64,000 bases of DNA from Phycisphaerales bacterium (GTDB lineage: Bacteria > Planctomycetota > Phycisphaerae > UBA1845 > PWPN01). Below the pieces are notes generated by a model that saw only the letters and a program-made list of their open reading frames with translations, was not told the origin of the DNA and made no database searches. The number at the start of each line of letters is the position of its first letter. The stretch's first letter is position 1. Made by a program: the position numbers and the translations under genes. The stretch is from NCBI GenBank assembly GCA_012729595.1, contig JAAYCU010000282.1, forward strand, positions 3,591-67,590, written 5' to 3'. This document shows positions 9,726 to 26,821 of the stretch, piece after piece.

Positions 9726-9754
9726 TTGAACACAAGAACAGGCGTTATTATAAT
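9726..9754 (+). promoter_or_regulatory. Sigma-70-type promoter candidate for nfnAB (TTGAAC-N17-TATAAT)
   Basis: TTGAAC at 9726-9731, a 17-nt spacer, then TATAAT at 9749-9754, about 118 nt upstream of the 9872 ATG. Confidence 0.45.
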
Positions 9755-9871
9755 AAAGAAAGAGTACGATCACCCTACCTGAATCCCGGGTAACCCCCGG
9801 AATGGTCGGCGGTCATAAGCGTGTAAGAATCATCGCAAACGGCCAGCCGTTTCTGTTGGAGCGAATAGTAA

Positions 9872-10735
9872 ATGTTCCTTATCCTTGACGCCCAGTGGCT
9901 CGCTCCCGGCATCCGCCGGCTCATCGTGCAAGCCCCACACGTTCTCCGGCACCATCAGCCCGGGCATTTTGTTATTGTACGTGTCGCGCCCGAAAGCGAG
10001 CGCATCCCGCTGACCGTGGCCGACACCGATCACGACAAGCAGACTATCACATTGATTGTCCAGGTGGTCGGGGCGACCACCGAACAGCTCTGCAATCTCG
10101 AAACCGGACAGAGTGTCCTCGATGTGGCCGGCCCGCTGGGCAAACCGACGGAGATCAAGAAATTCGGGCATGTCGTCCTGGTCGGCGGTGGAGTGGGGAC
10201 GGCGGTTATTCTCCCGCAGGCCAAGGCCCTGAAAAATCTTGGCAACCGCGTCTCGGCCGTTATCGGCGGACGCAGCAAGGATTATGTCATCCTGGAACAA
10301 GATCTGAGCCAACACTGCGACGCCGTCTATCCCTGCACCGATGACGGGAGCTACGGATATCACGGATTTGTCACAGGACAATTGAACGAGCTGATCGCGG
10401 ACAAAGCCCAACCGGTCGATGCGGTCATCGCCGCCGGGCCGGTGCCGATGATGAAGGCCGTCGCCGAAGTCACCCGTCCGCACGGTATTCATACTATCGT
10501 CTCGCTCAACCCCATCATGGTCGACGGCACGGGAATGTGCGGCGGTTGCCGGGTGATGGTCGGAGACAAAATGCTGTTCGCCTGTGTCGACGGCCCGGAA
10601 TTCGACGCCCACCAGGTGGATTTCGATGAGCTGCGCGACCGCCTGACCGCCTACCGCACCCAGGAAAAGAGAGCATGGGACCACAAGCCAAGCGGGCACG
10701 TATGTAAATGCAAAGTCGCGGAGGTGCCGTCATGA
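9872..10735 (+). CDS. nfnA: Sulfide/dihydroorotate dehydrogenase-like FAD/NAD-binding subunit (NfnA/SudB type)
   Basis: PGHFVIVR...RIPLTVAD FAD-binding motif, VLVGGGVGTA NAD(P) fold, C-terminal CGGCRV...FACVDGPEF 2Fe-2S motif. Its stop overlaps the next gene's start (ATGA). Confidence 0.75.
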   Translation: MFLILDAQWLAPGIRRLIVQAPHVLRHHQPGHFVIVRVAPESERIPLTVADTDHDKQTITLIVQVVGATTEQLCNLETGQSVLDVAGPLGKPTEIKKFGHVVLVGGGVGTAVILPQAKALKNLGNRVSAVIGGRSKDYVILEQDLSQHCDAVYPCTDDGSYGYHGFVTGQLNELIADKAQPVDAVIAAGPVPMMKAVAEVTRPHGIHTIVSLNPIMVDGTGMCGGCRVMVGDKMLFACVDGPEFDAHQVDFDELRDRLTAYRTQEKRAWDHKPSGHVCKCKVAEVPS

Positions 10736-12141
10736 CCCTCAAGGCCTCCGAACGGATGAAAATCCCGCGGCAACATATGCCCGAGCAGGATCCCGGCCAA
10801 CGGGCAACGAATTTCGGCGAGGTTAATTTCGGCCTGGCCTGCGAGGCCGCTCGCACCGAGGCCGACCGTTGCCTTGGCTGTAAGGGCGCTAAATGTATAG
10901 GCGGCTGTCCCGTCGGCGTGGACATTCCCGGTTTTCTCGGGGCTCTGTCCGAAGGCAATCTAGACAAGGCCGCCGATATCCTCTTCGATGCCAACGTTTT
11001 GCCTGGCATTACCGGCCGCGTCTGCCCCCAGGAAACCCAATGCGAGGCTCTCTGCATCCGTACGGGCAAAAGTGAGCCGGTGGCCGTCGGCTATCTCGAA
11101 CGTTTCGTAGCCGATTGGGCCCGCGAACACCGTACTACCAAGGTTCAACATCCTCCCGCGACCGGGAAACGCGTGGCCGTAGTCGGCTCGGGGCCGGCCG
11201 GCCTGACCTGTGCAGGCGAACTGGCGAAAAAAGGGCACCAGGTAACCATCTACGAAGCCCTGCACAAACCCGGCGGGGTATTAGTCTACGGCATCCCGGA
11301 GTTTCGTCTGCCTAAAAAGATTGTCGATAGCGAGGTTGAGAAGCTCAAACAACTCGGCGTTCGCATCGAATGCAATATAATAATCGGCCAGACCTATACA
11401 ATCAGCGACCTGCTGAACGAACAGGGCTTCGATGCGGTCTTCATCGCCAACGGAGCCGGTCTACCGGTATTCTTGGGAATCCCCGGAGAAAATCTAAAAG
11501 GGGTTTATTCTGCCAATGAATACCTTACCCGGGTCAACCTCATGGGCGCTTATCGCTTTCCGGAAAGTCCCACGCCTGTAATCGACGCTCCGCAAGTCGT
11601 GGTAGTCGGCGGAGGCAATACGGCGATGGACGCCGTCCGCACCGCCCGCCGACTGGGGGCCTCGCCGGCCACGCTTATTTACCGGCGTAGCCGCCAGGAA
11701 ATGCCCGCCCGTGTCGAGGAAGTCAAACACGCCGAGGAGGAGGGCGTGACCTATCATTTCCTGGTCAACCCCGTCGAGATCCTCGGCACCGATGATGGTT
11801 GGGTTCGGGCCGTCCGCTGCCAAAATAGGGAACTGGGTGAACCGGACGATTCCGGACGCCGACGCCCCATAGCTGTCCCCGGCAGCGAATTCGAAGTCCC
11901 CTGCCAGGTATTTATCGAAGCCATCGGAACACGGGCCAACCCCCTGCTCACTCAGACCACCCCCGAGCTCAAGGTCAATAAATGGGGGTACATCGAGGTC
12001 GACGACAAGAACATGACCAGCGTCCCCGGCGTATTCGCCGGCGGCGATATCGTCCGCGGGGCAGCCACCGTCATCCTGGCTATGGGCGACGGAAAGAAAA
12101 CCGCAGCGGCCATGCATGACTATCTGCTCAACCAAGATTAA
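10732..12141 (+). CDS. nfnB: NADPH-dependent glutamate synthase beta-chain-like oxidoreductase (NfnB/SudA/GltD type)
   Basis: CLGCKGAKCIGGCPV and GRVCPQETQCE Fe-S motifs, two Rossmann motifs (VAVVGSGPAGL, VVVVGGGNTAMD), C-terminal GVFAGGD. ATG at 10732 is coupled to nfnA. Confidence 0.8.
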   Translation: MTLKASERMKIPRQHMPEQDPGQRATNFGEVNFGLACEAARTEADRCLGCKGAKCIGGCPVGVDIPGFLGALSEGNLDKAADILFDANVLPGITGRVCPQETQCEALCIRTGKSEPVAVGYLERFVADWAREHRTTKVQHPPATGKRVAVVGSGPAGLTCAGELAKKGHQVTIYEALHKPGGVLVYGIPEFRLPKKIVDSEVEKLKQLGVRIECNIIIGQTYTISDLLNEQGFDAVFIANGAGLPVFLGIPGENLKGVYSANEYLTRVNLMGAYRFPESPTPVIDAPQVVVVGGGNTAMDAVRTARRLGASPATLIYRRSRQEMPARVEEVKHAEEEGVTYHFLVNPVEILGTDDGWVRAVRCQNRELGEPDDSGRRRPIAVPGSEFEVPCQVFIEAIGTRANPLLTQTTPELKVNKWGYIEVDDKNMTSVPGVFAGGDIVRGAATVILAMGDGKKTAAAMHDYLLNQD

Positions 12142-12400
12142 ACTACACCTTGCCGCATGCGTTTTTTGTGCAGCGACCTCAGCACGGGCTCTACATGGTC
12201 GCTCAACACGCACCTGAGGATCATCCGGCTGACGATGCGGGGCAGCACGGCGTATCGGATGACGGACCAATATTCCCCTTCGGCACGCAACCGACCGGGA
12301 AGCAACCAGTTGCTCAAGGGCAGTACATATAGTAGGGGTATACCGCACAGCCAGAGCCTCCCAAATACGAGATCGGGACAGGCCCTGCCTCCGTGCTACA

Positions 12401-13177
12401 ATGTTGGCTATGAAAAACACACAAGGACTTACCATTCTGCTGGAGGACGAGCAGCTCCTCGTGGTCAACAAACCCGCCGGGCTGCTTACCGTCCCCGGCC
12501 GCCAGGGTGGGCATTCCCTGCGCGAAGCGGTCGCCTACACTCTGGGCATCACCCAAAAACTCTTTCTCGTCCATCGGCTGGACGCCGGGACCAGCGGCGT
12601 ATTGCTGCTGGCCAAAACTCCCGAGGCCCAAAGGCATCTTGCCCAACAGTTCCAGAACCGCCTTGTCCAAAAAGAATATCTGGCCATCGTGCGCGGCTCG
12701 CCCGAGGAGGATAGCGGCCTGATCGTCGCCCCGATCGCTCCGCATCCGCGCATACCGGCCAAGATGATCGTCAGCGAAAAAAAGGGCCGCCCTTCCCAGA
12801 CAAAATGGCAGATCGTCGATCGTTTCCAGGGTATATCCCTCGTCCGCTGCCGGCCGCTTACCGGCCGACAGCACCAGATTCGCGTCCATCTCGCCCTGAT
12901 CGAGATGCCACTGCTGGTCGATCCGCTCTACGGCAACGCCGAAGCCTTCTATCTCTCGCAACTCAAGGTTGGCTATAAGCCCAGCAACCGCCACGAGGAA
13001 CGCCCCCTGCTCGCCCGCCTCAGCCTGCACGCCGACGCACTTAACTTCACCCACCCGCGGACCAACCACCCGGTCCGCGTCGAGGCCCCCCTGCCGAAGG
13101 ATCTGCACGCCACGCTCACCCAGTTGCGTAAATTGTGCGGTTCGGCGGGCGGAGCGGCCTTGCCGGAACCGGCGTAA
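12401..13177 (+). CDS. RluA family pseudouridine synthase
   Basis: VVNKPAGLL and the catalytic HRLDAGTSGVLLLAK motif, plus GRQHQIRVHL. Confidence 0.85.
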   Translation: MLAMKNTQGLTILLEDEQLLVVNKPAGLLTVPGRQGGHSLREAVAYTLGITQKLFLVHRLDAGTSGVLLLAKTPEAQRHLAQQFQNRLVQKEYLAIVRGSPEEDSGLIVAPIAPHPRIPAKMIVSEKKGRPSQTKWQIVDRFQGISLVRCRPLTGRQHQIRVHLALIEMPLLVDPLYGNAEAFYLSQLKVGYKPSNRHEERPLLARLSLHADALNFTHPRTNHPVRVEAPLPKDLHATLTQLRKLCGSAGGAALPEPA

Positions 13178-13262
13178 CAGATGGAGACAATGCATAGCCG
13201 AGGGCCGCACCGCCCCGCACACCATAGAGGCCCCTTAAAAGAGATGACCGACAAGCTCGCGG

Positions 13263-13290: not shown

Positions 13291-13365
13291 GCGGATATAT
13301 ACGCAGGCCCGGCGGCGACGCTGGGCGAAAACCGTCGAGTATCCGGCCGGCGGGCGTAGAGACTT

Positions 13366-13439
<74 letters not shown>

Positions 13440-13515
13440 TTGTTTTACATACCCCCTGTTCGCTCGACCTGTCAATTGCCATCAGAATCACGATTTTAAC
13501 TCTTATCGTCCCCCC

Positions 13516-14958
13516 CTACTCTTCGGCGTCCTCGGCGGCGAGGTTGTATTTGCGCATCAGGGCGTGGAAGTTCGTGCGTTGCATGCCGACCTGCTCGGCG
13601 GCCTTGCTGACGTTGCCGCCGCAACGGCGGAGGGCCTCGACCAGAAAGCGGCGTTCGAGTTCATGCACGGCCGAGTCGCGGACCTGCTGCTTGAGTTTCT
13701 TGAATTCCTCCCAGTCGGCGGGCAGTTGGCTGACATCCGAGCGCAGCGGGGCCTGGCGGATTTCCGGGGGCAGGTGTCGGGCCTCGATCCGGTCGGCATC
13801 GCAAAGAATGGCCATCCGCTCCACGATATTACGCAGTTCGCGAACGTTGCCCGGCCAGGGGTAGCTTTCCATCCGGGCCATGGCCTCTGGGGTGAATCCC
13901 TTGAGGGGCATGTCGTTCTTCTCGCGAAAGCGCTCCAGAAACGCCACAGCCAGCAGCGGGATATCCCCGGGCCGCTCGCGCAACGGCGGCAGGTGGATGG
14001 GCACGACGTTAAGGCGATAGTAGAGATCCTCGCGAAATGCGCCCTCGCGAACCAGGGCGGCCAAGTCGCGATTGGTCGCGGCGATCAGGCGGATATCCAC
14101 CTCGCGCTCGGCGGCCTCGCCCACCCGCTTGACCTGGCGAGTTTCCAGCACGCGCAGGAGTTTGCCCTGGGTCTCCAGGCTGATGTTGCCCACTTCGTCC
14201 AGAAAAAGCGTGCCCTTGTCGGCGGCCTCGAACAACCCCTGCTTGTTGCTGATCGCCCCGGAGAACGACCCGCGAACGTGTCCGAACAATTCACTTTCAA
14301 GCAGGGTCGGAGCCAAAGCGGTGCAATCGCAAGCCAGCAGCGAATGGTCGCGGCGGCGGCTTAAACGATGCAAGGCACGGACGACCATCTCCTTGCCCGT
14401 GCCGCTCTCGCCGGTGACCAGGACAGTGCCCTCGGTCGGGGCGACCCGCTTGATCAGGGTGAAGACCTGTTCCATGGTCCGCGATTCGCCGATGATCCCC
14501 TCAAAGCCGCGAGCGACATCGAGCTCACGGCGGAGGGCGGCGTTCTCGCGAAGCAAGACCGAGCGTTCCCAGACCTTGCCGACCACGACATGCAACTGGT
14601 TGGGCGAAAAGGGCTTGCTCAAGAAGTCGGCGGCACCCTGCTTCATGGCCTCGACGGCAGATTCGACCGTCGAATGGCCGGTGATAATAATCACTTCCGC
14701 AGAGACGCCAGCGGCTTTGACCCGCCGCAATATCTCGAAACCGTCGATCATGGGCATCATCAGATCAACAAGAATAATATCGAACTCACCGGACATGGCC
14801 GCCTGCAAGCCCTCGTTTGGATCCTCGCAATAAAGCACGTCATGGCCCTCCGGTGCGAGCGAACGTTTGCAGCTCAGCCCGACGACCGGTTCATCGTCGA
14901 TGACCAGAATCCGCAACGGGGCTCTTTGGGTGGCCATACCGGGAAGCGTATGACTCAT
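13516..14958 (-). CDS. Sigma-54-dependent Fis-family response regulator (NtrC-type enhancer-binding protein)
   Basis: Receiver (ILVIDDE...[10 protein letters not shown]), AAA+ core (GESGTGKE, a GAFTGA-loop variant [23 protein letters not shown]), C-terminal Fis HTH ([25 protein letters not shown]). Confidence 0.9.
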
Positions 14959-16904
14959 GACTCGGCCTTATCTTTCTCCGGCCGTTCGGCCTGGCCGGGC
15001 TGGTTGTCCGCGGCGGGCAGGATGATGGTAAATACCGCTCCGTTACCCTCGGCACTCTCCACCTCGAGCGAGCCGCCGTGCTGCTCGATGATCCCGTAAC
15101 TGACACTGAGGCCCAAGCCGGTGCTCTTGCCCACCGGCTTGGTACTGAAGAACGGCTCGAAGATCTGATCTAGATGTTCCCGGCGGATTCCATGTCCGGT
15201 ATCGGCTACCTGGATCACCACCAGCCGGTCACGCTGGGTTGTGCGAAGGGTCAATGTCCCACCGTTCGGCATGGCCTCGCAGGCATTGAGAAACAGGTTG
15301 AGCAACACCTGCTGAAACTGATTCATGTCGCCTCGGACCACCGGCAGGCCTTCGCATAATTCCTCGCTAATCAAAATCTCCTGGAACTGTTTTTGGCCGC
15401 CGATCAAACGGATAGTCCGTCGAATCGCATCGTTTACATCAAGCGGCTCCTTCTTGACCGGTTTCTCGCGTGCAAAATCCAGTAACCCACTGACAATCTC
15501 CGCCACCCGGCTGGTTTCGTTAATTATCAGCTCAAGATCCTCACGGTCCTGAGCGTCCATATTGGCCTTACCGTGCAGCAAATGGGCGAAGGTAAGGACG
15601 CCGGTCAGCGGGTTGTTAATTTCGTGGGCGATACCGGCGGCGAGGCGTCCGATGGAGGCCAGCTTTTCGCTACGGCCGATCTGCTGGCGGGCGGCCTGGG
15701 TGAGTCTTTCCTCGCGCTGGGCCACCGCGTCCGCCATAGAATCGATCGCCTGGCACAACTGCCCCATTTCGCCCGGTGGGTGCATACCGACCCTGACTGA
15801 AAAATCGCCCCCGCTCATTTTGCGGGACATGGCAATGATCCGATCGATAGGACGTAAAACCAGTTTGGTCACCAGAAAAATCAAGCTCAAACTCACCAGA
15901 GTAGCTAATCCCATGAAGGCCAGGAATGAACCGGCGATGATGTTCCGTTTGTGAAGAAAAGGCTCCTGAAGCAGGCCAACATATAATGCGCCGATGGTCC
16001 GGCCGCGTGGATCGCGAATCGGCTCGTAGGCGGAAATATACCAATCGTTAACAACGAAAGCCGGCGCCGCCCAGAGCTCTCCCCGTTCGAGAACGGCGTC
16101 CCGAACGGGCTCGCTCATCCGCGTGCCGACCGCCCGTTGTCCGCTTGGCAGGGTAACGTTGGTGGATATACGCGTATCGTCGAGGAAAATGGTTATGGTA
16201 CCTTTCTCCTGCCCCTGATGGGATTGGGGCGGAAAAACCATGGACTGGATAGCATCCACCACGTCGTAGCGTCCGTTGAGCAAATCACCGCCGTAGAGGA
16301 TTCCCAACAAGTGCCCCTGATGATCCGTTATAGGAACGGCGGCCGCGGCGACCAGCCCGTAGGTGGAAACACTGTCCGGGACAAGTTCCGCCGGCGTTGA
16401 CGCTATCAACTCGATCCTGGCCCGGGCCGCGAGTTCTCCGTCCTCTACGGCCAATTGCTCGTCAGTAAGAACAATGGTTCCGGTCGCGGCTTGTTGTGTC
16501 TCCATAACTTGGGCAATCAGTGGATTGTCAACCAGCATATCACCGGTCCGCTCGGGGGCCCGGGCCCGGCAGATCACCACCCCGGAGGCATCCAGAACAA
16601 CTACAAAGTCCATTTCCCAGGAGCTATATACCCTCCGTAATATCCGGCCCAGCTCATCGCAATCTTTTTTTTCCAGGGCTTCCGCCAGGGATTGATCCAA
16701 GGCGACCGCAAGGAGAAAATGGGCACTTCGCTCGATATGGTGATCGTAGATGACCCGGGCGCTATTTAGGTCGAGTCGAACATTGTTCTGGACCTCGTGT
16801 AGCCAAACCCGGCTGACATAGTGCACGGTAGCCAATGAAAGTATCGAGTTTGCCACCAGGATCACGGCGATAAACATCATGGTCAGCTTCACACGGATAG
16901 TCAT
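14955..16904 (-). CDS. Membrane sensor histidine kinase (large periplasmic sensor domain, HAMP, HisKA, HATPase)
   Basis: Start taken at MTIRVKL (ATG 16904; the track ORF extends upstream). Two TM segments flank a ~330-aa loop. HAMP, H-box AAGIAHEINNPL, N/G boxes NLFLNACEAM, DTGHGI, GLGLSV. Overlaps the regulator gene by 4 nt. Confidence 0.85.
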   Translation of the reverse strand: MTIRVKLTMMFIAVILVANSILSLATVHYVSRVWLHEVQNNVRLDLNSARVIYDHHIERSAHFLLAVALDQSLAEALEKKDCDELGRILRRVYSSWEMDFVVVLDASGVVICRARAPERTGDMLVDNPLIAQVMETQQAATGTIVLTDEQLAVEDGELAARARIELIASTPAELVPDSVSTYGLVAAAAVPITDHQGHLLGILYGGDLLNGRYDVVDAIQSMVFPPQSHQGQEKGTITIFLDDTRISTNVTLPSGQRAVGTRMSEPVRDAVLERGELWAAPAFVVNDWYISAYEPIRDPRGRTIGALYVGLLQEPFLHKRNIIAGSFLAFMGLATLVSLSLIFLVTKLVLRPIDRIIAMSRKMSGGDFSVRVGMHPPGEMGQLCQAIDSMADAVAQREERLTQAARQQIGRSEKLASIGRLAAGIAHEINNPLTGVLTFAHLLHGKANMDAQDREDLELIINETSRVAEIVSGLLDFAREKPVKKEPLDVNDAIRRTIRLIGGQKQFQEILISEELCEGLPVVRGDMNQFQQVLLNLFLNACEAMPNGGTLTLRTTQRDRLVVIQVADTGHGIRREHLDQIFEPFFSTKPVGKSTGLGLSVSYGIIEQHGGSLEVESAEGNGAVFTIILPAADNQPGQAERPEKDKAES

Positions 16905-17034
16905 GGTTATTCTCGATCCTGGCCGGTGGTTAGCAAAAATACTCGTACAGTGTATGAGCATACCATACACCCGAAAGGATGGTAGTAAACTCTGGGCAGC
17001 TTGACAAATAACCGCAGCGTAGCGACAAGGGGAC

Positions 17035-17153: not shown

Positions 17154-17169
17154 TGGCACAGCGGTTGCT
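17154..17169 (+). promoter_or_regulatory. Sigma-54 (-24/-12) promoter upstream of hydC
   Basis: TGGCACagcggTTGCTt matches the TGGCAC-N5-TTGCW consensus exactly (GG-N10-GC spacing). It lies about 118 nt upstream of the hydC start and next to a sigma-54 EBP gene. Confidence 0.75.
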
Positions 17170-17286: not shown

Positions 17287-17778
17287 GTGATTGCCTTGGA
17301 TACCGAGGAAATTTTGACAAGGCACCCCAATGCCGGACGGGACAGCCTGATCCCTATTTTGCAGGAGGTCCAGGAAAGCCAGGGCTATCTGTCCCGGCAG
17401 GCGATGATCGAGATAGGCCGACATCTGAACTTGCCGGTCAGCAAAATTTACGGGGTGGCTACCTTTTACAACCAGTTCCGTTTCCAGCCGCAAGGCCGCT
17501 TTCACATCCAGGTCTGCCGGGGAACGGCCTGCCACGTTAAGGGGTCGGCCGCGGTGCTGGATGCGCTCAAACGCGAGTTGAAGATCGATGCGGGCCAGAC
17601 TACGCGGGACGGGGTGTTCAGCATGGAAGTCGTAGCCTGCATCGGGGCGTGCGGACTGGCCCCGGTCATTTGTATCAACGGAGAGTTTTTTGCCGGCGTA
17701 AGTACGCAGGCGGTACCAAAAATCATCGATTCTTATCGAAGAAAGGCGGCTAACAATGACCACGACGAAGCTGCCTGA
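17287..17778 (+). CDS. hydC: [FeFe]-hydrogenase subunit HydC (NuoE-like 2Fe-2S thioredoxin-fold protein)
   Basis: GTG start after an AGGAAGG RBS. NuoE motifs VCRGTACHVKGS and VACIGACGLAPV. Confidence 0.85.
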   Translation: MIALDTEEILTRHPNAGRDSLIPILQEVQESQGYLSRQAMIEIGRHLNLPVSKIYGVATFYNQFRFQPQGRFHIQVCRGTACHVKGSAAVLDALKRELKIDAGQTTRDGVFSMEVVACIGACGLAPVICINGEFFAGVSTQAVPKIIDSYRRKAANNDHDEAA

Positions 17779-19120
17779 ACAGGAAAAGTGCAAGGTTAAG
17801 GCCAAGTTGCCCGAGGTGCTTGAGTTGGTGTTGGCGGAAAACGCCGGACCAATTACGGACAATGTAGCCATGGCGTGGACGGAACGCCTGGCGGAACTAC
17901 GCCGAGAGAAGCTGGTTCGTCCGGCCGTATTTATCGGCACTGGCACCTGCGGGCTGGGGGCCGGAGCAGCCAAAACCCTGGCGGCGGTCAAGGGCTGGCT
18001 CGCGGAGCGGAACCTCGAGGCCGACATAGTGGAAGTCGGATGTATCGGTATATGTTCGGCAGAGCCGCTCTTGGACGTGCAGTTGCCCGGGCGGACACGG
18101 GTTTGCTTCGCCAAGGTAACGGAAGACAAGGTTGCCGCCCTGCTAGGCTCGGTTTTCGAAAACAATATCCCGGACGAGACGGTTTTGGGACAGCATCGCG
18201 GCGAATCCCTTGAACCTTGGTCAGATGTTCCCTGGCTGCACGAGCATCCGTTCTTCGCCCCGCAGACGCGATGGGTTCTGGCTAACTGCGGTCTGATCGA
18301 TCCGGCCAGCATGGACGAATATATCGCTCGAGGCGGCTACCGGGCCATGGTCAAGATGCTCCGGGAAATGACTCCCGAGCAGACCTGTGACATGGTGGAG
18401 GCCAGCGGGCTTCGTGGCCGTGGCGGCGGCGGGTTCCCCACGGGCAAAAAATGGAAATTCGCCAGGCAAACGCCGAGCAAGCAGAAATATGTAATCTGCA
18501 ACGCGGATGAAGGCGACCCCGGCGCATTCATGGATCGGGCGGTCATCGAGGGCGATCCCCACCGGCTGGTGGAGGGTCTGGCCATCGCGGCGTACGGAAT
18601 CGGGGCATCCAAGGCCTACATCTATATTCGCGCGGAATATCCGCTGGCCATCCAACGACTGAAAGTAGCGATCGAACAGGCCAGGAATGCCGGGTTACTG
18701 GGCCATCGGATTCTGGGCAGCGATTTTGACCTGGATATCATAATCAAGATGGGGGCGGGCGCGTTCGTGTGCGGCGAGGAGACGGCCCTGATGCACAGCA
18801 TCGAGGGCAAGCGGGGCATGCCCCGGCCGCGGCCGCCTTTCCCGGCGGTGCAAGGATTGTTCGGCAAGCCGACGATTATCAACAACGTCGAGACCCTGGC
18901 TAACCTGCCGACCTTAGTGGATCACGGGGCCGAATGGTTCAGTGCGGTGGGTACACCAACCAGCAAGGGAACGAAAGTGTTCGCCCTGTCAGGCAAGGTC
19001 GCCCGGACCGGCTTGGTCGAGGTGGCCATGGGCACCAGCATTCGCAGCATCGTGTTCGATGCCGGCGGCGGGATCCCCAACGGCAAGGTCTATAAAGCAG
19101 TACAGATCGGCGGGCCGTAG
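17756..19120 (+). CDS. hydB: [FeFe]-hydrogenase subunit HydB (NuoF-like), N-terminal part ending at an in-frame TAG
   Basis: N-terminal 2Fe-2S thioredoxin-like domain (CGLGAG...GCIGICSAEP). NuoF FMN/NADH motifs GLRGRGGGGFPTGKKW, CNADEGDPGAF, GAGAFVCGEETAL. Ends ...VQIGGP*. Confidence 0.85.
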   Translation: MTTTKLPEQEKCKVKAKLPEVLELVLAENAGPITDNVAMAWTERLAELRREKLVRPAVFIGTGTCGLGAGAAKTLAAVKGWLAERNLEADIVEVGCIGICSAEPLLDVQLPGRTRVCFAKVTEDKVAALLGSVFENNIPDETVLGQHRGESLEPWSDVPWLHEHPFFAPQTRWVLANCGLIDPASMDEYIARGGYRAMVKMLREMTPEQTCDMVEASGLRGRGGGGFPTGKKWKFARQTPSKQKYVICNADEGDPGAFMDRAVIEGDPHRLVEGLAIAAYGIGASKAYIYIRAEYPLAIQRLKVAIEQARNAGLLGHRILGSDFDLDIIIKMGAGAFVCGEETALMHSIEGKRGMPRPRPPFPAVQGLFGKPTIINNVETLANLPTLVDHGAEWFSAVGTPTSKGTKVFALSGKVARTGLVEVAMGTSIRSIVFDAGGGIPNGKVYKAVQIGGP

Positions 19121-19741
19121 GGCGGATGCATTCCCGAACATCATCTGGACATCCAGATCGATTATGAATCACTCAAGACCGTGGGCGCGATGATGGGCTC
19201 CGGCGGACTGGTGGTCATGGACGAAGACACCTGCATGGTGGACCTGGCCAAGTTTTTCATGGATTTCATCCAGCGGGAAAGCTGCGGCAAGTGTATTCCC
19301 TGCCGGGAGGGCACGCGACGTATGCTGGAGATTCTGGAACGGATCACCCAAGCCCGGCGGAGCGAAACGGGCACGGGCGCACTCGAACGGTTCAAGGGCG
19401 TGATGTACCTGACCCGGCTGGCTGAAGTAATCAAGGACACGAGCTTGTGTGGCCTGGGACAGACGGCGCCGAACCCCGTTCTAAGTACATTGCGGTGGTT
19501 CCGTAACGAATACGAGGAGCACATTTTCCATCGGCGGTGCCCGGCTGGAGCCTGTCGAGAGCTGCTGCACTTCCGGATCGATCCGGACCTGTGCAAAGGC
19601 TGCACGCTCTGCGCGAAGAAATGTCCGACACAGGCGATCATGGGCGCTCCCAAGAGCCCGCATTACATCATTACCGATAAGTGCATTGGTTGCGGAACGT
19701 GCCTGGAGGTGTGCCGCCCGAAAGCGGTTATAGTGGATTAA
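19121..19741 (+). CDS. hydB: HydB (NuoF-like), C-terminal part in the same frame as 17756..19120 (first Met at 19181)
   Basis: The same reading frame continues [10 protein letters not shown]...[14 protein letters not shown]. NuoF 4Fe-4S motif [12 protein letters not shown]...LCGLGQ, then 2x[4Fe-4S] [12 protein letters not shown] / [13 protein letters not shown]. Confidence 0.8.
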
Positions 19742-19796
19742 GACGGCGCGCTAGCCCGGCCTTCCGGGCGCGGCCGAGAATATCAAGAGGTTGATC

Positions 19797-21518
19797 GTGG
19801 TTACCATTGAAGTAAATAACCGAACTGTCGAGGCCAAACCGGGCGAAATGCTGCTCAGCACGTTGCGACGGGCAGGAATCAAGGTGCCTACCATGTGCAA
19901 TATCGATGGGCTGCCGCCGAGCGGGGCCTGTCGGATGTGCGTGGTGGAGGTGGAGGGCCGGCCGGGGCTGCAACCGAGTTGCGCGTTGCCGGTGACCGAA
20001 GGCATGAAGGTACAGACCCATTCACCGCGGGCGGTACGGGCTCGGAAAACCATCGTGGAATTGCTGCTGGCCAACCATCCGGACGACTGCCTTTACTGCG
20101 TGCGGAATAACCAGTGCGAGCTGCAAAACCTGGCCGGCGAACTGGGCGTGCGTGAGCGGCGTTACACAGGCCAGCGCGAAGAATATCACCTGGACCTATC
20201 CAGCCCGTCCATCGTGCGCGATCCGGCCAAGTGCATTCTGTGTGGCAAGTGCGTGCGAGTCTGCGCAGAAATCCAGAACGTCGCCTCGATCGATTTTGTC
20301 GGACGGGGCAGCCATTCGCGGGTCGGGACCGCCTTCGAGCAGGGTTTGAACGTATCGAGCTGCATCAATTGCGGCCAGTGCGTGATGATCTGCCCGACGG
20401 GCGCGTTACGCGAGAAAAGCGCATTGAAGGAAGTGTTCGAGGCCATCCTTGACCCGGAACGTGTTGTGGTGGTGCAACACGCTCCGGCGGTCTCCGTGAG
20501 TCTGGCCGAGGAGTTCGGCCTGCGTCCGGGAACGGACATCAACGGCGTGATGGTGGCCGCTCTCCGCCGGCTGGGCTTCGACCGGGTATTCGACACGTCG
20601 TTTTCCGCGGACCTGACCATCATGGAGGAAGCTTCCGAGCTGGTGGATCGTATCAAGAACGGCGGCAAGTTACCGATGATGACCAGTTGCTCGCCGGGCT
20701 GGATCAAGTTCGTCGAACAGTTTTATCCGGACATGATAGAGAACCTGTCCACCTGCAAGAGCCCGCAACAAATGCTCGGTGCGCTGATCAAGTCGCTCTT
20801 CGCGGAACGGGAAGGGATCGATCCGTCCCGGATTTTCAGCGTGTCGATCATGCCCTGCACGGCCAAGAAGTTCGAGGCCGGCCGACCGGAGATGGGCCGG
20901 CATGGAATCGCAGACGTGGACGCTGTTTTGACCACCCGCGAACTGGCCCGCATGATCCGCCTGGAGGGCATCGATCTTCAATCGCTCACGCCGTCGGAAG
21001 CGGACAACCCGTTCGGGCAGCGGAGCACGGCCGGCAAGCTATTCGGCGCAACGGGCGGAGTCATGGAAGCGGCGGTCCGAACCGCGCATTACCTATTGAC
21101 CGGACGCGAACTGGCCGAATTAAAGGTTCAGCCTATTCGCGGCATGAAAGGCGTGAAGAAAGCGAAACTGAAAATCGACGGCCTGGAGATCGGCATCGCG
21201 GTGGCCAGCGGGCTGGGCAACGCCGCTGAACTACTGGAAGAGGTACGGGCCGGCCGACAGGATCTGCATTTTATCGAGATAATGACCTGCTCAGGCGGCT
21301 GCGTGGCCGGAGGTGGCCAACCGATAGGGGCCGACGCCGCAGCGGTGCGGGCGCGAATGCAAGCCCTGTATAACATTGACCGCAGTGGAACCTTGCGTAC
21401 ATCCCACTCCAACCCGGACATCAAACGGGTCTACGAAGAGTATCTGGGAGAACCGCTGGGCGAGAAGAGCCACCATCTGTTGCATACGCATTACGCAAAA
21501 AGGGAAGTAGTGGGTTAG
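19797..21518 (+). CDS. hydA: [FeFe]-hydrogenase catalytic subunit HydA (HndD type, group A trimeric/bifurcating architecture)
   Basis: N-terminal 2Fe-2S and His-ligated/4Fe-4S domains. H-cluster motifs L1 MTSCSPGW (variant), L2 MPCTAKKFE, L3 EIMTCSGGCVAGGGQP. GTG at 19797 follows an AAGAGG RBS (track TTG at 19791). Confidence 0.9.
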   Translation: MVTIEVNNRTVEAKPGEMLLSTLRRAGIKVPTMCNIDGLPPSGACRMCVVEVEGRPGLQPSCALPVTEGMKVQTHSPRAVRARKTIVELLLANHPDDCLYCVRNNQCELQNLAGELGVRERRYTGQREEYHLDLSSPSIVRDPAKCILCGKCVRVCAEIQNVASIDFVGRGSHSRVGTAFEQGLNVSSCINCGQCVMICPTGALREKSALKEVFEAILDPERVVVVQHAPAVSVSLAEEFGLRPGTDINGVMVAALRRLGFDRVFDTSFSADLTIMEEASELVDRIKNGGKLPMMTSCSPGWIKFVEQFYPDMIENLSTCKSPQQMLGALIKSLFAEREGIDPSRIFSVSIMPCTAKKFEAGRPEMGRHGIADVDAVLTTRELARMIRLEGIDLQSLTPSEADNPFGQRSTAGKLFGATGGVMEAAVRTAHYLLTGRELAELKVQPIRGMKGVKKAKLKIDGLEIGIAVASGLGNAAELLEEVRAGRQDLHFIEIMTCSGGCVAGGGQPIGADAAAVRARMQALYNIDRSGTLRTSHSNPDIKRVYEEYLGEPLGEKSHHLLHTHYAKREVVG

Positions 21519-21655: not shown

Positions 21656-23659
21656 ATGCGACATCCCGCGGATATTCCGTTGGTCACGACGATCAAGGAG
21701 CGCTGCCGGGTATGCTATACCTGCGTGCGGGAGTGCCCGGCCAAGGCCATCCGTATTTCCGATGGTCAGGCGGAAGTACTGACGGAACGTTGCATAGGAT
21801 GCGGAAACTGCGTGCGAGTCTGCAGCCAGCACGCCAAGCAAATCTTAAACGGCATTGAGGAAGTCAAAGCTTTGCTGGCGAGCGAGCATAAGGTAGCCGC
21901 CTGCGTAGCACCGAGTTTTCCTGCCGAGTTTGAGGAAATCCCCTACACCAAACTGGTCGGCATGATCCGAGCCCTGGGTTTCGATTATGTCACCGAGGTC
22001 GGTTTCGGTGCGGATTTGGTGGCCGACCGATACCGCAAGCTGCTCGATGAAAATGGAAATAAGCGATATTTGGCCACCAGTTGTCCGGCTATCGTGGGTT
22101 ACGTAGAGCGCTATCATCCCGAACTGGTCAATTCATTGGCCCCGATCGTCTCGCCCATGGTGGCCACGGCCCGGGTCTTACGCCGTATGCACGGCAAAGG
22201 GCTGAAGGTTGTGTTTATCGGCCCGTGTATCGCCAAGAAAGGCGAGGCGGTAACCCGAAAAATTGCGGGCGACGTTGACGGAGCACTAACCTTTTCGGAA
22301 TTGCGCCATTTTTTCGCGGCGCAGAATATTACACCGGAGTCCGCCAGTAGCGATGAATTTGATCCACCACGTGCCGGGGCCGGATCCTTGTTTCCGATCA
22401 GCCGCGGCATGTTACAGGCCGCCCAGATCAGCGAGGATCTTGCAGCGGGGATCGTCGTGGCAGCCGACGGGCGCAGCGATTTCGCGGAGGCCATTCGCGA
22501 ATTCGAGACGGGCGATCTGGATGCTCGGCTACTGGAAGTTTTGTGTTGCAACGGCTGCATCATGGGTGCAGGCATGACCTGCCGCACTCCCCAATTCCAT
22601 CGTCGCAGCCGGATCAGCCAATTCGTCCGCCGACGCATGGGGGCGATGGATCATCGCGAATGGGAAGGACAGATGACCCGTTTCGCGGATCTGGACCTGA
22701 GCCGATCATACGAGGCAAACGACCGGCGGGTCGCCGCACCGTCGGATGACGCGGTTCGGCTGATACTCGCGGAAATGGGCAAGCTCAAACCCGAGGATGA
22801 GCTGAATTGCGGGGCCTGTGGCTACGAAAACTGCCGGGAACATGCCATCGCTATTTATAAGGGCCTGGCCGAAAGCGAGATGTGCCTGCCTTACACGATC
22901 GAGCAGCTTCGCCAGACAGTACAGGAGCTGGCCAGCACCCAAGAGGCGTTGAATAATTCCGAGAAACTAGCGAGCATGGGACAGATGGCCGCGGGCATCG
23001 CCCACGAGGTGAACAATCCGCTGGGTGTCGTGCTTATGTTCGCCCACATTCTGCTGGACGAGCTCCCCCCGGACAATCCGTACCGCAAGGATTTGCAGAC
23101 GATCGTGGAAAACGCCGACCGGTGCAAGAAGATCGTATCCGGCCTGCTGCATTTCGCCCGGCAGAATAAGGTCAGCCTGGAAATGACGGATGTGCGCGAC
23201 TTGGTGGACAAAGCCCTCAAGGTCGTATCCCTTCCAGCCAAAGTCACGTTACAGGTTGAACATGAGCCGGGAGACATGAACGCGGACGTTGACCGAGACC
23301 AGTTGGTGCAGATTTTAAACAATCTTATCAGTAACGCGCAGGCGGCTATGCCCAATGGTGGAACCCTGACCGTACGGACCAGCGAGGACGGCGAGCGAGT
23401 GTGTATCGCGGTATCCGATACCGGAGTGGGCATTCCGGAAGAGAATCGGAAGAAGATCTTTGATCCGTTTTTCACCACCAAGGAGGTGGGCAAGGGAACC
23501 GGGCTGGGACTGGCGGTAACGTACGGAATCGTGAAAATGCATCATGGGAATATTGAGGTGGAATCGAATGCGGATGCCGCCAAAGGCCCGACGGGAACGA
23601 CATTCAGGGTACTCCTACCGCGTCGCGGCCGTCAGGAGGCGCCCGCATCGGCGGGTTAA
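21656..23659 (+). CDS. Hydrogenase-like (H-domain) sensory protein fused to a histidine kinase (HydS-type domain + HisKA + HATPase)
   Basis: 2x[4Fe-4S] ferredoxin motifs ([23 protein letters not shown]). Degenerate H-cluster motifs [31 protein letters not shown] 4-Cys module CGACGYENC...C. H-box [12 protein letters not shown], and [24 protein letters not shown]. Confidence 0.85.
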
Positions 23660-23679
23660 TATATATAAAGGACACGACA

Positions 23680-24066
23680 ATGGCCAAAACAGTACTGGCA
23701 GTGGATGATGATGCTGATTATCTGGCCCAACTGGAGATCCAGTTGTTGGCCGCGGGATTCGAGGTCTGGACCGCCGAGAGCGTTGGACAAGCGAAGGAGA
23801 TTCTAGACCAACGCCGCCCGGACCTGGCGGTCGTAGACCTAATGATGGAGCACATGGACGACGGTTTCACCTTGTGCCACGACATCAAGGCTCGCGACGC
23901 AAGCATTCCGGTTATTCTGGTGACCGGAGTGGCGGGCGAAACCGGCCTGGATTTCGACGCCTCGACCAAGGAAGAGCGTTCGTGGATCAAGGCAGACGCC
24001 TTACTGGACAAGCCGGTGCGTTTTGAGCAGCTTAGGCGGGAAATCGGCAAGCTGCTTAAGGAATAG
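23680..24066 (+). CDS. Single-domain response regulator (receiver only)
   Basis: 128 aa. VLAVDDD, DLAVVDLMMEH, ILVTG and LDKP receiver signatures, with no output domain. AAGGA RBS. Confidence 0.85.
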   Translation: MAKTVLAVDDDADYLAQLEIQLLAAGFEVWTAESVGQAKEILDQRRPDLAVVDLMMEHMDDGFTLCHDIKARDASIPVILVTGVAGETGLDFDASTKEERSWIKADALLDKPVRFEQLRREIGKLLKE

Positions 24067-25238
24067 TGGTCATGGATACATTACGGGTGTTGGTCACCGA
24101 CGATGAGGCAGAGATGCGCCGGGCGGTGGATCGGGCTCTGGCCCGCTTCACCGTGGCGTTACCCGACGTTGAAGGGGAAGTATGCTTCGCTGTCGAGCAA
24201 GCCGAGAGTGGCGAACAGGCCCTCGAAAAAATCGCGGTCCAACCTCCGGATATCCTGATGCTGGACTACAAAATGGGCGGCATGACCGGCTTGGATGTCC
24301 TTGATCAACTATCCAAACAGGAACACGAAATGCTGACCGTGATGGTGACCGCCTACGCCTCACTGGAAACAGCGGTGGTGGCGACCAAACGCGGCGCATT
24401 TGATTTCATCGCCAAGCCTTTCACTCCGGCCGAACTTAAGGACACGGTCCGCAAGGCGGCCGCGCACCTGTTGATGCAGCGGCAGGCCCGCAAGCTGGCC
24501 CAGGAAAAGCGACAGGTCCGGTTCCAGTTCATCAGCGTGCTGGCCCACGAGTTGAAAGCGCCGCTGGGGGCGATCGAAGGCTTTCTGCAAGCTTTGACGA
24601 ATCCGCAGGTGCGGGCCAACGACGAGGCCTGCGCCCAGATGATCGGGCGCTGTCTGATACGGACCGAGGGGATGCGTAAGATGATCCACGACCTGCTCGA
24701 CCTGACCCGTATCGAGTCCGGGGCCAAGAAACGCGAGCTGGCGGAATTGGACGTGGTCGAGATGGTCCACCGATCCATCGAAACCCTGACCCCGCTGGCG
24801 ACGGAACGCAACGTACGGATCGAAGTGCGTACGGACGGGCCGATACCCATGATGGCCGACCAGGGAGAAATCGAAATCATCGCGAACAATCTGCTGAGCA
24901 ATGCGGTGAAATACAACAAGGAGGGCGGCCGGGTCGAGGTCAAGCTATCCGCCGACGGCGAGGAAGCGGTATTGGCCGTGACGGATACGGGGATCGGCAT
25001 GACCGCCGAGGAAACCGCCCGGCTGTTCCGGGATTTCGTACGGATCAAGAATGACCAAACCAGGCGGATCATGGGCAGCGGACTGGGTCTTTCGATCGTT
25101 AAAAAGCTGGCCCTGCTCTACGGCGGTGACGCGACGGTGTGGAGCGAACCGGGCGAGGGCAGCACCTTTACGGTTCGTTTGAAACGCAACCTGGGCGGCG
25201 AGCCGGCGGCGGCCGCCGAACGCGCGGTCGAGGCCTGA
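24066..25238 (+). CDS. Receiver-histidine kinase hybrid (REC + HisKA + HATPase, cytoplasmic)
   Basis: N-terminal receiver (VLVTDDE, DILMLDYKMGGMTG, FIAKPF), H-box SVLAHELKAPL, N/G boxes NLLSNAVKYN, DTGIGM, GSGLGLSI. No TM or sensor domain. The start is coupled to the preceding stop. Confidence 0.85.
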   Translation: MVMDTLRVLVTDDEAEMRRAVDRALARFTVALPDVEGEVCFAVEQAESGEQALEKIAVQPPDILMLDYKMGGMTGLDVLDQLSKQEHEMLTVMVTAYASLETAVVATKRGAFDFIAKPFTPAELKDTVRKAAAHLLMQRQARKLAQEKRQVRFQFISVLAHELKAPLGAIEGFLQALTNPQVRANDEACAQMIGRCLIRTEGMRKMIHDLLDLTRIESGAKKRELAELDVVEMVHRSIETLTPLATERNVRIEVRTDGPIPMMADQGEIEIIANNLLSNAVKYNKEGGRVEVKLSADGEEAVLAVTDTGIGMTAEETARLFRDFVRIKNDQTRRIMGSGLGLSIVKKLALLYGGDATVWSEPGEGSTFTVRLKRNLGGEPAAAAERAVEA

Positions 25239-25399
25239 ACCTTGGACGCCGCGATGCGGGGAAGCGGATGAGGCCCCACGGGCTGACCGGATTACCCACC
25301 GGCAAGAGGCGGGAGAATGACTTCCTGGGGTATTTTACCGCGTGGTTTTTTGTAGACCAGCCGCCTATGAATATAAGTAGGATCTTGTGAGGAGTTGCC

Positions 25400-26821
25400 A
25401 TGCGTGCCATGGCCCAGATGACCTTAAGCGAACACGCCACCGACTTTATCGACGACGACCGGTTGAACGGTCTGCTTCGATCGCGGCCGGACGAGGCCCG
25501 CGTGCGCGCCATCATTGAAAAAAGTCTGGCCAAGCAAGCCTTGAACGTCGAGGAAACCGCGGTCCTGCTCAACGCCGAGGAACCGGACCTTGTCGAGGAG
25601 ATTTTCGAGGCCGCCCGGCGGCTCAAGCGCAACGTGTACGGCAACCGCATCGTTCTTTTCGCCCCGCTATATATCGGCAACGAATGCGTGAACGACTGCC
25701 TGTACTGCGCCTTCAAACGCTCAAACCCGGACGCGGTTCGGCGGACGCTGGCGGAGCAGGAGTTGCGGCGGCAGGTGGAGGCCCTGGAAAACCAGGGGCA
25801 TAAGCGACTGATTCTGGTATTCGGAGAGCACCCGCGTTACGACGCCACGTTTATTGCCGATTGCGTGCGCACGGTTTACGACGTGCATGCAGGGCATGGG
25901 CAGATTCGACGAGTGAATATAAACGCCGCCCCGCTCGATCACGTCGGGTACAAGACCGTCAAAGAGGCCGGAATCGGCACGTACCAGGTGTTTCAGGAGA
26001 CGTATCACCACGCCACCTATGCCCGGGTCCATCCGTCCAACACACGCAAGGGCAATTACGGTTACCGCTTGGATGCCTTGAGCCGGGCCATGGAGGCGGG
26101 CATCGACGACGTGGGGATCGGGGCGTTGTTCGGCCTGTACGACTGGCGCTTCGAGGTGCTGGGCCTGGTAGCGCACGCGACGTATCTCCAGAAACGACAT
26201 GGGGTCGGGCCGCACACGATCAGTTTTCCACGCTTGCAGCCGGCCGCGGGCGTGCAACTCGATCAACGGTTTTTCGTAAACGATCACGACTTCAAGCGGC
26301 TGATCGCCGTCCTGCGGCTGGCCGTCCCTTACACCGGGCTTATCCTGACCGCCCGGGAAAAGCCCGCCTTGCGCCGCGCGGTGATGGAATTCGGGGTCTC
26401 CCAGATCGACGCCGGCAGCCGCATCGAGATCGGCGGATACACCGAGGCCGGCGACGCGCAGTGCATGGAACGCGAACAGTTTCAACTGGGCGATATCCGC
26501 TCGCTCGATGAGGTCATGCGCGAATTGCTGGTGGACGGCTATATCCCCAGCTTCTGTACGGCCTGCTATCGGCTGGGCCGGACCGGGGAACATTTCATGG
26601 AATTCGCGATCCCCGGCTTCATCAAGCGCTATTGCACGCCAAACGCCCTGAGCACGCTCATGGAATACCTGACCGACTACGCCTCTCCGCAAACCAAGGC
26701 GGCAGGCCGAAGACTGATCGAGGCTGAACTCGATAAAATGGATAACGGCACGCAAAAAGAACGCCTGCGGGACGTATTGCGGAAAATCGAATCAACCGAC
26801 CAACGCGATCTCTATTTCTGA
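25400..26821 (+). CDS. hydG: [FeFe]-hydrogenase H-cluster radical SAM maturase HydG
   Basis: GAGGAG RBS. Radical SAM CVNDCLYCAF. C-terminal Fe-S motif GYIPSFCTACYRLGRTGEHFMEF and CTPNAL. ~470 aa, typical of HydG (ThiH-like). Confidence 0.88.
   Translation: MRAMAQMTLSEHATDFIDDDRLNGLLRSRPDEARVRAIIEKSLAKQALNVEETAVLLNAEEPDLVEEIFEAARRLKRNVYGNRIVLFAPLYIGNECVNDCLYCAFKRSNPDAVRRTLAEQELRRQVEALENQGHKRLILVFGEHPRYDATFIADCVRTVYDVHAGHGQIRRVNINAAPLDHVGYKTVKEAGIGTYQVFQETYHHATYARVHPSNTRKGNYGYRLDALSRAMEAGIDDVGIGALFGLYDWRFEVLGLVAHATYLQKRHGVGPHTISFPRLQPAAGVQLDQRFFVNDHDFKRLIAVLRLAVPYTGLILTAREKPALRRAVMEFGVSQIDAGSRIEIGGYTEAGDAQCMEREQFQLGDIRSLDEVMRELLVDGYIPSFCTACYRLGRTGEHFMEFAIPGFIKRYCTPNALSTLMEYLTDYASPQTKAAGRRLIEAELDKMDNGTQKERLRDVLRKIESTDQRDLYF

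Follow-up and report, generated by a model that had tools for sequence, protein, structure and literature searches.

In HoxBC-HoxJ-HoxA of Ralstonia eutropha and in HupUV-HupT-HupR, a hydrogenase-like H2 sensor acts on a histidine kinase, and the kinase on an NtrC-family activator of the hydrogenase genes. The putative sensory [FeFe]-hydrogenases characterised to date, TmHydS and TamHydS, have no defined partner, and at their C-terminal end there is either a PAS domain or no further domain. We describe here a set of three signalling genes found in 64,000 nt of DNA from Phycisphaerales bacterium (GCA_012729595.1, contig JAAYCU010000282.1, positions 3,591 to 67,590; this whole stretch is called the window below). 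They encode a predicted sensory [FeFe]-hydrogenase domain fused to a histidine kinase (HydS-HK), a stand-alone receiver (REC1) and a Rec-controlled histidine kinase (Rec-HK), and lie between the hydA and hydG genes of a HydABC-type hydrogenase locus.

The sensor-kinase fusion itself is already catalogued (HydDB group C; 'BfuT'). HydDB lists the [FeFe] group C1 as 'histidine kinase-linked (putative)' with an 'undetermined role' (PMC5037454), and a 2024 survey of Hydrogenedentota reports 'BfuT', a sensory hydrogenase with a histidine-kinase domain placed after bfuA in sub-type V BfuABC clusters, naming Caldithrix abyssi DSM 13497 as a cultured carrier and assigning the kinase-bearing BfuT of Caldithrix-type clusters to C3 (PMC11406978). 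As far as the passages searched in these papers go, this is the same kind of protein, in the same place after hydA, as HydS-HK, whose subgroup would be C1 or C3. Several of the loci analysed here are from Hydrogenedentota and include the example isolate of that survey (L038; L numbers designate related loci throughout). The same passages (PMC5037454, PMC11406978) record that the two are fused or linked and presume a role in regulation, but go no further, and mention no receiver, Rec-controlled kinase, Rex or sigma-54 variant. In our literature searches, no description was found of the three-gene module, of an alternation between Rex and sigma-54 control or of a linkage between REC1 and hydA.

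A sensor kinase followed by a sensor-less kinase of the REC-alphaS-DHp-CA type is also found in LvrA-LvrB-LvrC of pathogenic Leptospira and in PhcS/PhcR of Ralstonia (PMC13269768). When LvrA phosphorylates the receiver of LvrB, the prototype of the Rec-controlled histidine kinases, a coiled coil forms and the CA domain is freed; the next phosphorylation is that of LvrC by LvrB, LvrC consisting of a receiver and an anti-sigma domain in one protein (PMC13269768). LvrC, like the proposed terminal REC1, is not a DNA-binding regulator, although REC1 is without any effector domain. HydS-HK is not a hybrid kinase, unlike the upstream kinase of the Lvr cascade, and Rec-HK is not an orthologue of LvrB, since its core is PhoR/HK853-like and closer in sequence to LvrA than to LvrB. 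The Hox and Hup systems follow a similar logic, and the window too has a sigma-54 promoter and an NtrC-family activator before its hyd operon. However, their sensor is a [NiFe] protein with a separate PAS kinase, whereas in HydS-HK an [FeFe] H-domain and the kinase form one polypeptide that lacks PAS. The module in addition contains REC1 and Rec-HK, and its link to the activator is putative and absent from most carrier genomes.

Conservation of the three-gene module

The three signalling genes are on the same strand and fill the interval from hydA to hydG. The hydrogenase genes and the module are arranged as follows:

17287 to 17778, plus strand: hydC, NuoE-like [2Fe-2S] subunit (PF01257, 3.5e-50)
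17756 to 19741, plus strand: hydB, NuoF-like flavoprotein subunit, with an in-frame TAG at 19118-19120 within GGP[S]GGC
19791 to 21518, plus strand: hydA, catalytic [FeFe]-hydrogenase subunit of HydABC type (group A3-like), with TSCSPGW, MPCTAK and EIMTCSGGC
21656 to 23659, plus strand: HydS-HK, 667 aa, with 2x[4Fe-4S], Fe_hyd_lg_C, PF04060, HisKA and HATPase_c
23680 to 24066, plus strand: REC1, stand-alone receiver of 128 aa, Response_reg only
24072 to 25238, plus strand: Rec-HK, Rec-controlled histidine kinase, with Response_reg, HisKA and HATPase_c
25400 to 26821, plus strand: hydG, radical-SAM H-cluster maturase (TIGR03955, 499.5 bits against a cut-off of 312, equivalog level)

The top database match, at 100% identity, comes from a metagenome-assembled genome of Phycisphaerales. 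Relatives of HydS-HK were searched with a pattern scan of one genome per species, and at least 584 genomes from more than 15 phyla encode one. The loci analysed are the best 80 of these at least 584 genomes; they were annotated by mapping the window proteins onto all open reading frames (ORFs), and each count is limited to loci with enough flanking sequence. They come from Planctomycetota, Hydrogenedentota, Sumerlaeota, Myxococcota, Acidobacteriota, Fermentibacterota, Marinimicrobia, Calditrichota, Fibrobacterota, Bacteroidota and others. Rec-HK lies directly downstream of HydS-HK in 67 of 69 loci, and hydA directly upstream in 56 of 67. REC1 is present in 57 of 70 loci, being placed between the two kinases in 47 and between hydA and the sensor in 10. 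The maturase genes are downstream less often (hydE in 21/62, hydG in 22/57 and hydF in 17/48 loci). This recurrence of the gene order in dozens of species-level genomes places the arrangement far beyond chance.

REC1 was found in 52 of the 53 loci with hydA adjacent and in none of the 12 without it (Fisher 3e-12), and the REC1-less loci are scattered over the neighbour-joining tree of the sensor. The co-occurrence with hydA and the scattered losses together suggest that REC1 is linked to the enzyme genes and not to the kinase pair. In L036, L051 and L053 there is a second hydrogenase cluster, after which come another kind of small receiver and a membrane GAF histidine kinase of 630 aa (e.g. 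L036 5786-8098); these are upstream of the HydS-HK/Rec-HK pair, and the pair has no REC1 there. In L060, from Myxococcota, a receiver fused to a formate/nitrite transporter (FNT) is found directly upstream of the pair (8694-9986).

According to the gene calls in L082, the canonical order is rex-hydC-hydB-hydA-hydS-HK-REC-Rec-HK-hydE-hydG-lyase-hydF. The window has a reduced form of it, shared with L081, a 90%-identical relative where the order is hydA-hydS-HK-REC-Rec-HK-hydG-GT2-HIT-L17. Neither hydE nor hydF nor rex was found anywhere in the 64-kb window by tblastn, and no remnant of hydE was found in the 161-nt gap before hydG (25239-25399), its usual place. Since L081 shows the same reduced form, the loss of hydE is real for this lineage; the window locus likewise has no hydF and no aspartase-like lyase.

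Comparison of the window with L081 gave dN/dS values of 0.04 for hydA, 0.06 for hydS-HK, 0.016 for REC1, 0.105 for Rec-HK and 0.077 for hydG, indicating that the signalling genes are under strong purifying selection, with REC1 the most strongly constrained gene of the set. The results support the view that the three genes are a functional signalling unit tied to the hydrogenase, and in the explanation that we favour this unit is a copy of a widespread and horizontally mobile module accompanying HydABC-type electron-bifurcating [FeFe]-hydrogenases.

A preliminary description of this stretch, made from its letters alone, had placed the three signalling genes between hydA and hydG, with no output domain in any of them, hydG next and hydE and hydF outside the window. 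Pfam, TIGR03955 and tblastn results bear this out, and the 20-nt gap between HydS-HK and REC1 is correct. A 1-nt overlap had been proposed between REC1 and Rec-HK, which needs a start at GTG 24066. ATG 24072 is the more likely start: it stands 9 nt after AAGGA and agrees with the 388-aa NCBI model P0241, and Rec-HK orthologues begin MDTLRVLV. The junction is therefore a 5-nt gap. The remark that hydG alone is co-localised with the sensor holds for the window and not as a general trait, as the canonical cluster continues hydE-hydG-lyase-hydF. A lack of conservation as a unit, named beforehand as what would speak against the proposal, is clearly excluded by the counts for Rec-HK and REC1. A search for co-occurrence of the five-gene signalling set had been suggested; HydS-HK, REC1 and Rec-HK recur together widely, and a sigma-54 activator is present in only 5 of 50 loci.

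Predicted properties of HydS-HK, REC1 and Rec-HK

The phospho-acceptor and catalytic residues of HydS-HK, REC1 and Rec-HK are all present and invariant in 64-81 orthologues. Pfam scans found no output domain in the three proteins, which also have no hydrophobic stretch typical of a membrane span.

The H-domain of HydS-HK matches PF02906 (1.1e-46), and its fold matches CbA5H, HydA and CpI. We took the criteria for a sensory hydrogenase from PMC8163306. The cysteines of two N-terminal [4Fe-4S] clusters (C17/20/23/27 and C46/49/52/56) are kept in 78-81 of 81 sequences, and the H-cluster ligands C143, C191, C298 and C301 are invariant in 81/81. The proton-relay Cys299 is lost, the residue before C143 being T, S, N or A in the 81 sequences. 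Met353 is replaced by an invariant Gly189, and Met497 by Leu296 in 80/81. The C-terminal Cx2Cx4Cx16C motif (C385/388/393/410; PF04060, 2.2e-8) is kept in 80-81/81. The N-terminal 2x[4Fe-4S], the loss of Cys299 and the Cx2Cx4Cx16C motif are shared with TmHydS (T. maritima, group C/M2f) and TamHydS (Thermoanaerobacter mathranii, group D/M2e), while the Met353 to Gly change is that of TmHydS and the Met497 to Leu change that of TamHydS; all three proteins are encoded beside a bifurcating HydABC (PMC8163306). There are also differences. The two L3 cysteines of HydS-HK are spaced C-x-G-C, one residue shorter than canonical. TmHydS has a PAS domain after the C-terminal cluster, whereas in HydS-HK helices lead straight into a complete kinase core, and no PAS match was found with Pfam. 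The partners of HydS-HK are a receiver and a Rec-controlled kinase, those of TmHydS and TamHydS being Ser/Thr phosphatases or AraC-type regulators.

In the structural model of HydS-HK, residues 393-469, including the linker from C410 to His450, are helices only, in a region of low confidence. Two halves of the model are predicted with confidence and resemble [FeFe]-hydrogenases and the cytoplasmic domain of ZraS, respectively. The kinase core matches AtoS (3.5e-61) and ZraS (PDB 9jfj, 4e-36). Its DHp His450 stands in H-E-V-N-N-P, and the H, N, G1 and G2 boxes are invariant in orthologues. The residue at His+4 is Asn in 80/80 sequences, forming an E-x-x-N motif. As judged from sequence, HydS-HK is a sensory-type [FeFe]-hydrogenase domain joined to an AtoS/ZraS-type kinase core, and H2 sensing is predicted for it.

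REC1 has the key receiver residues D9/D10, D53, T82 and K111, a conserved insertion (...ETG.DFD.S..E.RSWIKAD...) and an identity of 62-73% across phyla; RR468 and PrrA are among its best solved relatives. No fusion to another domain was found in the best 120 database matches of either REC1 or Rec-HK, and those of REC1 are all stand-alone proteins of about 128-160 aa, giving no hint of a partner by this route.

In Rec-HK, the receiver residues D10/D11, D65, T93, F112 and K115 are kept in 68-70 of 70 sequences, and Pfam found no other input domain. The receiver matches that of NtrC (1dc7, 2e-15) and the core matches PhoR, PnpS, HK853 and ShkA, with DHp His159 in H-E-L-K-A-P and Ala or Ser at His+4 in 70/70 sequences. 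Its AlphaFold model (27 sequences, pLDDT 84.4) shows a single continuous helix, 119-174, running from receiver alpha5 through the linker into DHp alpha1 and containing His159; DHp alpha2 and the CA domain follow. LvrB (8vc9) is the best full-length PDB match to this model (E = 1e-22). Rec-HK has, in sequence and in the modelled structure, every feature of the LvrB-type Rec-controlled kinase architecture, and receiver-dependent activation is predicted.

Rex and sigma-54 front ends of the hyd operon

The most frequent unassigned neighbour of the related clusters is a 225-aa protein just upstream of hydC, which is Rex (PF06971 plus a CoA-binding Rossmann domain). Among the 50 loci with enough upstream sequence, rex is present in 33 and a sigma-54 activator in 5, and no locus has both. 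The rex gene is the first of most related clusters (e.g. L072 5025-5702; L082 1022-1666), and the Rex operator TTGTGAA-N4-TTCACAA, with up to 3 mismatches, is found just upstream of rex in 27 of 33 loci against 0 of 33 controls. A Rex operator in the window was considered and rejected, the best match having 4 mismatches and only a half-site, with the rex gene absent. The corresponding region of the window contains:

13516 to 14958, minus strand: sigma-54 activator with REC, AAA+ and HTH_8 domains (Pfam; NCBIfam AtoC, 6e-122; PF00158, 3.9e-67)
14955 to 16904, minus strand: membrane Cache/HAMP histidine kinase (AtoS/ZraS-type core) whose stop overlaps the activator start by 4 nt
16945 to 16971: palindrome ACAGTGTAT-N9-ATACAC, about 185-205 nt upstream of the -24/-12 element
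17154 to 17169, plus strand: sigma-54 promoter TGGCACAGCGGTTGCT, upstream of hydC, with the -24/-12 element TGGCACAGCGGTTGC at 17154

The activator, of AtoC/NtrC type, and the Cache kinase are transcribed divergently from the hyd operon. The activator has Asp65, the Walker A motif GESGTGK and GSFSGA where GAFTGA is expected. According to Pfam scans of the larger ORFs, it is the sole protein with a DNA-binding domain from about 9.8 to 31.7 kb. The palindrome falls within the Cache kinase ORF as mechanically called (GTG 17042). From ATG 16904 the kinase has a typical N-terminal membrane helix (MTIRVKLTMMFIAVIL...) and the palindrome becomes intergenic, and we consider this start the more likely one.

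The sole exact match to TGGCAC-N5-TTGC in the 64 kb is the one at 17154, before hydC. With up to one mismatch, such a promoter precedes hydC only in the window and in L009, L015, L020, L027, L032 and L033. We rejected a general dependence of the cluster on sigma-54, as the site is present in 6 of 50 upstream regions, exactly those that have the activator or the palindrome as well. The palindrome core GTGTAT-N9-11-ATACA[CT] is restricted, among related loci totalling about 1.3 Mb, to the sigma-54-type loci L027, L032 (twice) and L033, with variants in the sigma-54-type loci L015 and L020. The palindrome at 16945-16971 is probably the binding site of the sigma-54 activator, and the hydC promoter of the window is clearly, by its predicted elements, sigma-54 dependent and controlled by this activator. 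L001, the closest relative in the genome collection (71% identity), is of the Rex type. In the window and a few other Planctomycetota, the sequence comparison indicates that the Rex/operator front end is exchanged for the activator, palindrome and sigma-54 promoter, leaving the module unchanged.

The Cache kinase is beside the activator in the window, L027 and L032, and no kinase gene is found there in L009, L015 and L020. A protein with a glycine-cleavage-H-like domain, on the minus strand in each case, follows the activator in L015 (2093-3931), L020 (1020-2633), L027 (1556-2857) and L009 (2314-3549), loci from Thermoguttaceae and Planctomycetaceae. It has an N-terminal receiver in 3 of the 4 loci and no counterpart in the window.

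Other features of this part of the window are:

13365 to 13440, plus strand: tRNA-Arg(CCG), just past the 3' end of the activator
12401 to 13177: RluA-type pseudouridine synthase
12314 to 13225, minus strand: a 303-aa ORF that looks spurious
9872 to 12141: NfnAB-like pair (ferredoxin:NADP oxidoreductase), upstream of hydABC

Within the operon, 9 intrinsic terminators were found against 9.7 expected, which is the chance level, and none was convincing. The textbook L1 motif of hydA is TSCCPxW. The TSCSPGW of the window was considered as an anomaly and rejected, since HydA1 of Acetobacterium woodii (7q4v) has the identical motif, which is also found in L1 of almost all HydA orthologues from these clusters.

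Proposed signal transfer within the module and its alternatives

Family matching suggests how the proteins may be wired. The receiver of Rec-HK is NtrC-like, which pairs it with HydS-HK, an AtoS/ZraS-type kinase. RR468 is the partner of HK853, and the HK853-like core of Rec-HK is accordingly matched with REC1, which is RR468-like. In HisKA kinases, Thr or Asn at His+4 is needed for phosphatase activity. The Asn at this position in HydS-HK and the Ala or Ser in Rec-HK suggest that the first kinase is bifunctional and the second biased towards kinase activity. A linear kinase cascade from HydS-HK to Rec-HK and on to a receiver is in our view about as probable as its negation, and branching is also possible.

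Such a cascade would work as follows. HydS-HK would bind an H-cluster and, lacking the proton-relay Cys, turn over H2 slowly, as expected from its homology with TmHydS and TamHydS. The H2 or redox state would be reported to the C-terminal [4Fe-4S] cluster, one helical linker away from His450. HydS-HK, predicted from its motifs to be both kinase and phosphatase through the E-x-x-N beside the His, would set the phosphorylation of Asp65 in the NtrC-like receiver of Rec-HK, and this would act through the continuous alpha5/alphaS/DHp helix to switch on the PhoR/HK853-like core, as in the architecture shared with LvrB. The core of Rec-HK, without the T/N phosphatase residue, is predicted to be biased to kinase activity and would hand its phosphoryl group to a downstream receiver. 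The best nearby candidate is REC1, this being the least certain step. REC1, linked to hydABC, would act by protein-protein contact and not on DNA. Transcription of the operon would be controlled separately, mostly by Rex and its operator and in the window by the sigma-54 promoter, palindrome and activator with its Cache kinase; in the window lineage HydS-HK may additionally act on the activator, providing H2 feedback on hyd transcription.

Several points weigh against this cascade. H2 sensing by HydS-HK is predicted from what its PAS-type and group D relatives show, the wiring is proposed from family-level likeness and gene linkage, and the weak-phosphatase argument (Ala/Ser for Thr/Asn) is drawn from other HisKA kinases. 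Covariation of the DHp helix of each kinase with each of the two receivers, calculated as mutual information with average-product correction in 57-70 paired loci, gave no interface-like signal in any of the four pairings (top values 0.26-0.32), because HydS-HK hardly varies in its DHp specificity helix. Twelve loci have Rec-HK without REC1, and so either Rec-HK has another substrate there or REC1 is found with hydABC elsewhere in the genome. L034 has HydS-HK and REC1 without Rec-HK, which fits a direct transfer from HydS-HK to REC1, that is, branching. Finally, the hydB stop codon and the unlinked hydE and hydF mean that the system is perhaps not fully operational in this assembly.

The preliminary description had proposed a branched phosphorelay with the sigma-54 activator as its output. 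Its two-tier kinase arrangement is plausible given the LvrB-type architecture of Rec-HK, and its sigma-54-type hydC promoter and sole nearby DNA-binding regulator agree with the promoter match, the upstream palindrome and the domain scans given above. A strict phosphorelay is not what the genes encode, as no HPt family match was found with Pfam in any of the five signalling proteins of the window and the second His belongs to a complete DHp-CA kinase. The branching is unproven, a linear cascade fitting at least as well, and the activator is not the general output of the module, given the predominance of Rex and the mutual exclusion of the two regulators.

If REC1 is the end of the cascade, it could act directly on HydABC, on its assembly or on its electron-bifurcation state, and not on transcription. 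We regard this as unlikely, in spite of several observations that favour it indirectly: in the great majority of loci no DNA-binding partner accompanies the module, the operon is served by an unrelated regulator of its own, either Rex or the sigma-54 activator, and REC1 combines strict co-occurrence with adjacent hydA with the strongest constraint of the set. If true, an H2-sensing kinase cascade would tune the hydrogenase complex post-translationally, for which we know of no precedent.

Among the explanations that would bring in the activator, the best surviving one is a short circuit like that of HoxJ and HoxA, restricted to the window lineage, where HydS-HK itself phosphorylates or dephosphorylates the sigma-54 activator alongside the Cache kinase, and REC1 and Rec-HK are a phosphate sink, a feedback branch or a persisting ancestral output. 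The cores of HydS-HK and the Cache kinase are 46% identical (4.5e-63), both of AtoS/ZraS type, and have nearly identical H-boxes (HEVNNPL and HEINNPL, respectively). The activator is of AtoC type, HydS-HK carries the E-x-x-N kinase/phosphatase motif, and the activator is without its own kinase in L009, L015 and L020. However, HydS-HK and the Cache kinase differ at His+7, +8, +11 and +15, the usual specificity positions (EnvZ, HK853), which looks like insulation between paralogues, and the specificity helix of HydS-HK shows no differences between Rex-type and sigma-54-type loci, so that no adaptation is visible. We consider the short circuit a tentative possibility, and a doubtful one; it is compatible with the favoured cascade as an added branch. 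If the module does feed the activator, family matching would make HydS-HK a better candidate than Rec-HK for its kinase.

The scheme originally put forward has HydS-HK phosphorylating REC1 and/or Rec-HK, with Rec-HK as the second tier, a kinase or phosphatase of the sigma-54 activator, so that intracellular H2 and the periplasmic signal of the Cache kinase are merged at the hydC promoter. Directly before hydC there are indeed the activator, a -24/-12 promoter with an exact match and a conserved upstream palindrome, a kinase of the hyd operon would be the most economical partner of the activator in L009, L015 and L020, where none is nearby, and Rec-HK needs some downstream receiver (PMC13269768). 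Nevertheless, the PhoR/HK853-like core of Rec-HK is not the match expected for an AtoC-type activator with an AtoS-type neighbour kinase, HydS-HK being the better one. Rec-HK is present in 67/69 loci and the activator in 5/50, with the same Rec-HK family found in Rex-type loci, and a phosphatase role is disfavoured by the missing T/N residue. A link to the activator through Rec-HK seems to us quite improbable.

That the locus is a decaying remnant with functionless signalling genes, as a broken hydB and the absence of hydE and hydF from both the window and the L081 locus might suggest, is very improbable, since all catalytic and phospho-acceptor residues are intact, dN/dS is 0.016-0.105 for hydA, hydS-HK, REC1, Rec-HK and hydG against L081, and hydE and hydF may be elsewhere in the genome. 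At the Ser of the conserved GGPSGGC motif, the TAG divides hydB into two ORFs, of 454 and 186 aa, that share one frame. Five unrelated metagenome contigs with identical flanks have TCG or TCC, and thus Ser, at 19118-19120. TAG is one C-to-A step from TCG, and the stop arose either recently by nonsense mutation or through a base-calling or consensus error. Long-term decay is disfavoured because the neighbouring genes are under strong purifying selection.

Taken together, the conserved two-tier signalling unit without output domains is real, and it is predicted to provide two-component signalling controlled by an H2 sensor through a cascade with a Rec-controlled kinase, where any link to the activator is lineage-specific and probably does not pass through Rec-HK. 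The alternation of Rex and sigma-54 control before an otherwise constant cluster is a clear replacement of a regulatory front end. With the HydS-HK family, the route by which sensory [FeFe]-hydrogenases pass on the H2 signal becomes directly testable: with the sensor joined to its kinase, the output can be read as autophosphorylation and phosphotransfer with and without H2, and REC1 and Rec-HK, its conserved partners, form a short list of candidates for signal transfer. As the module is found in uncultured anaerobes of more than 15 phyla together with the bifurcating hydrogenase that sets fermentative H2 release, its predicted function would bear on H2 cycling in sediments, digesters and habitats like these.

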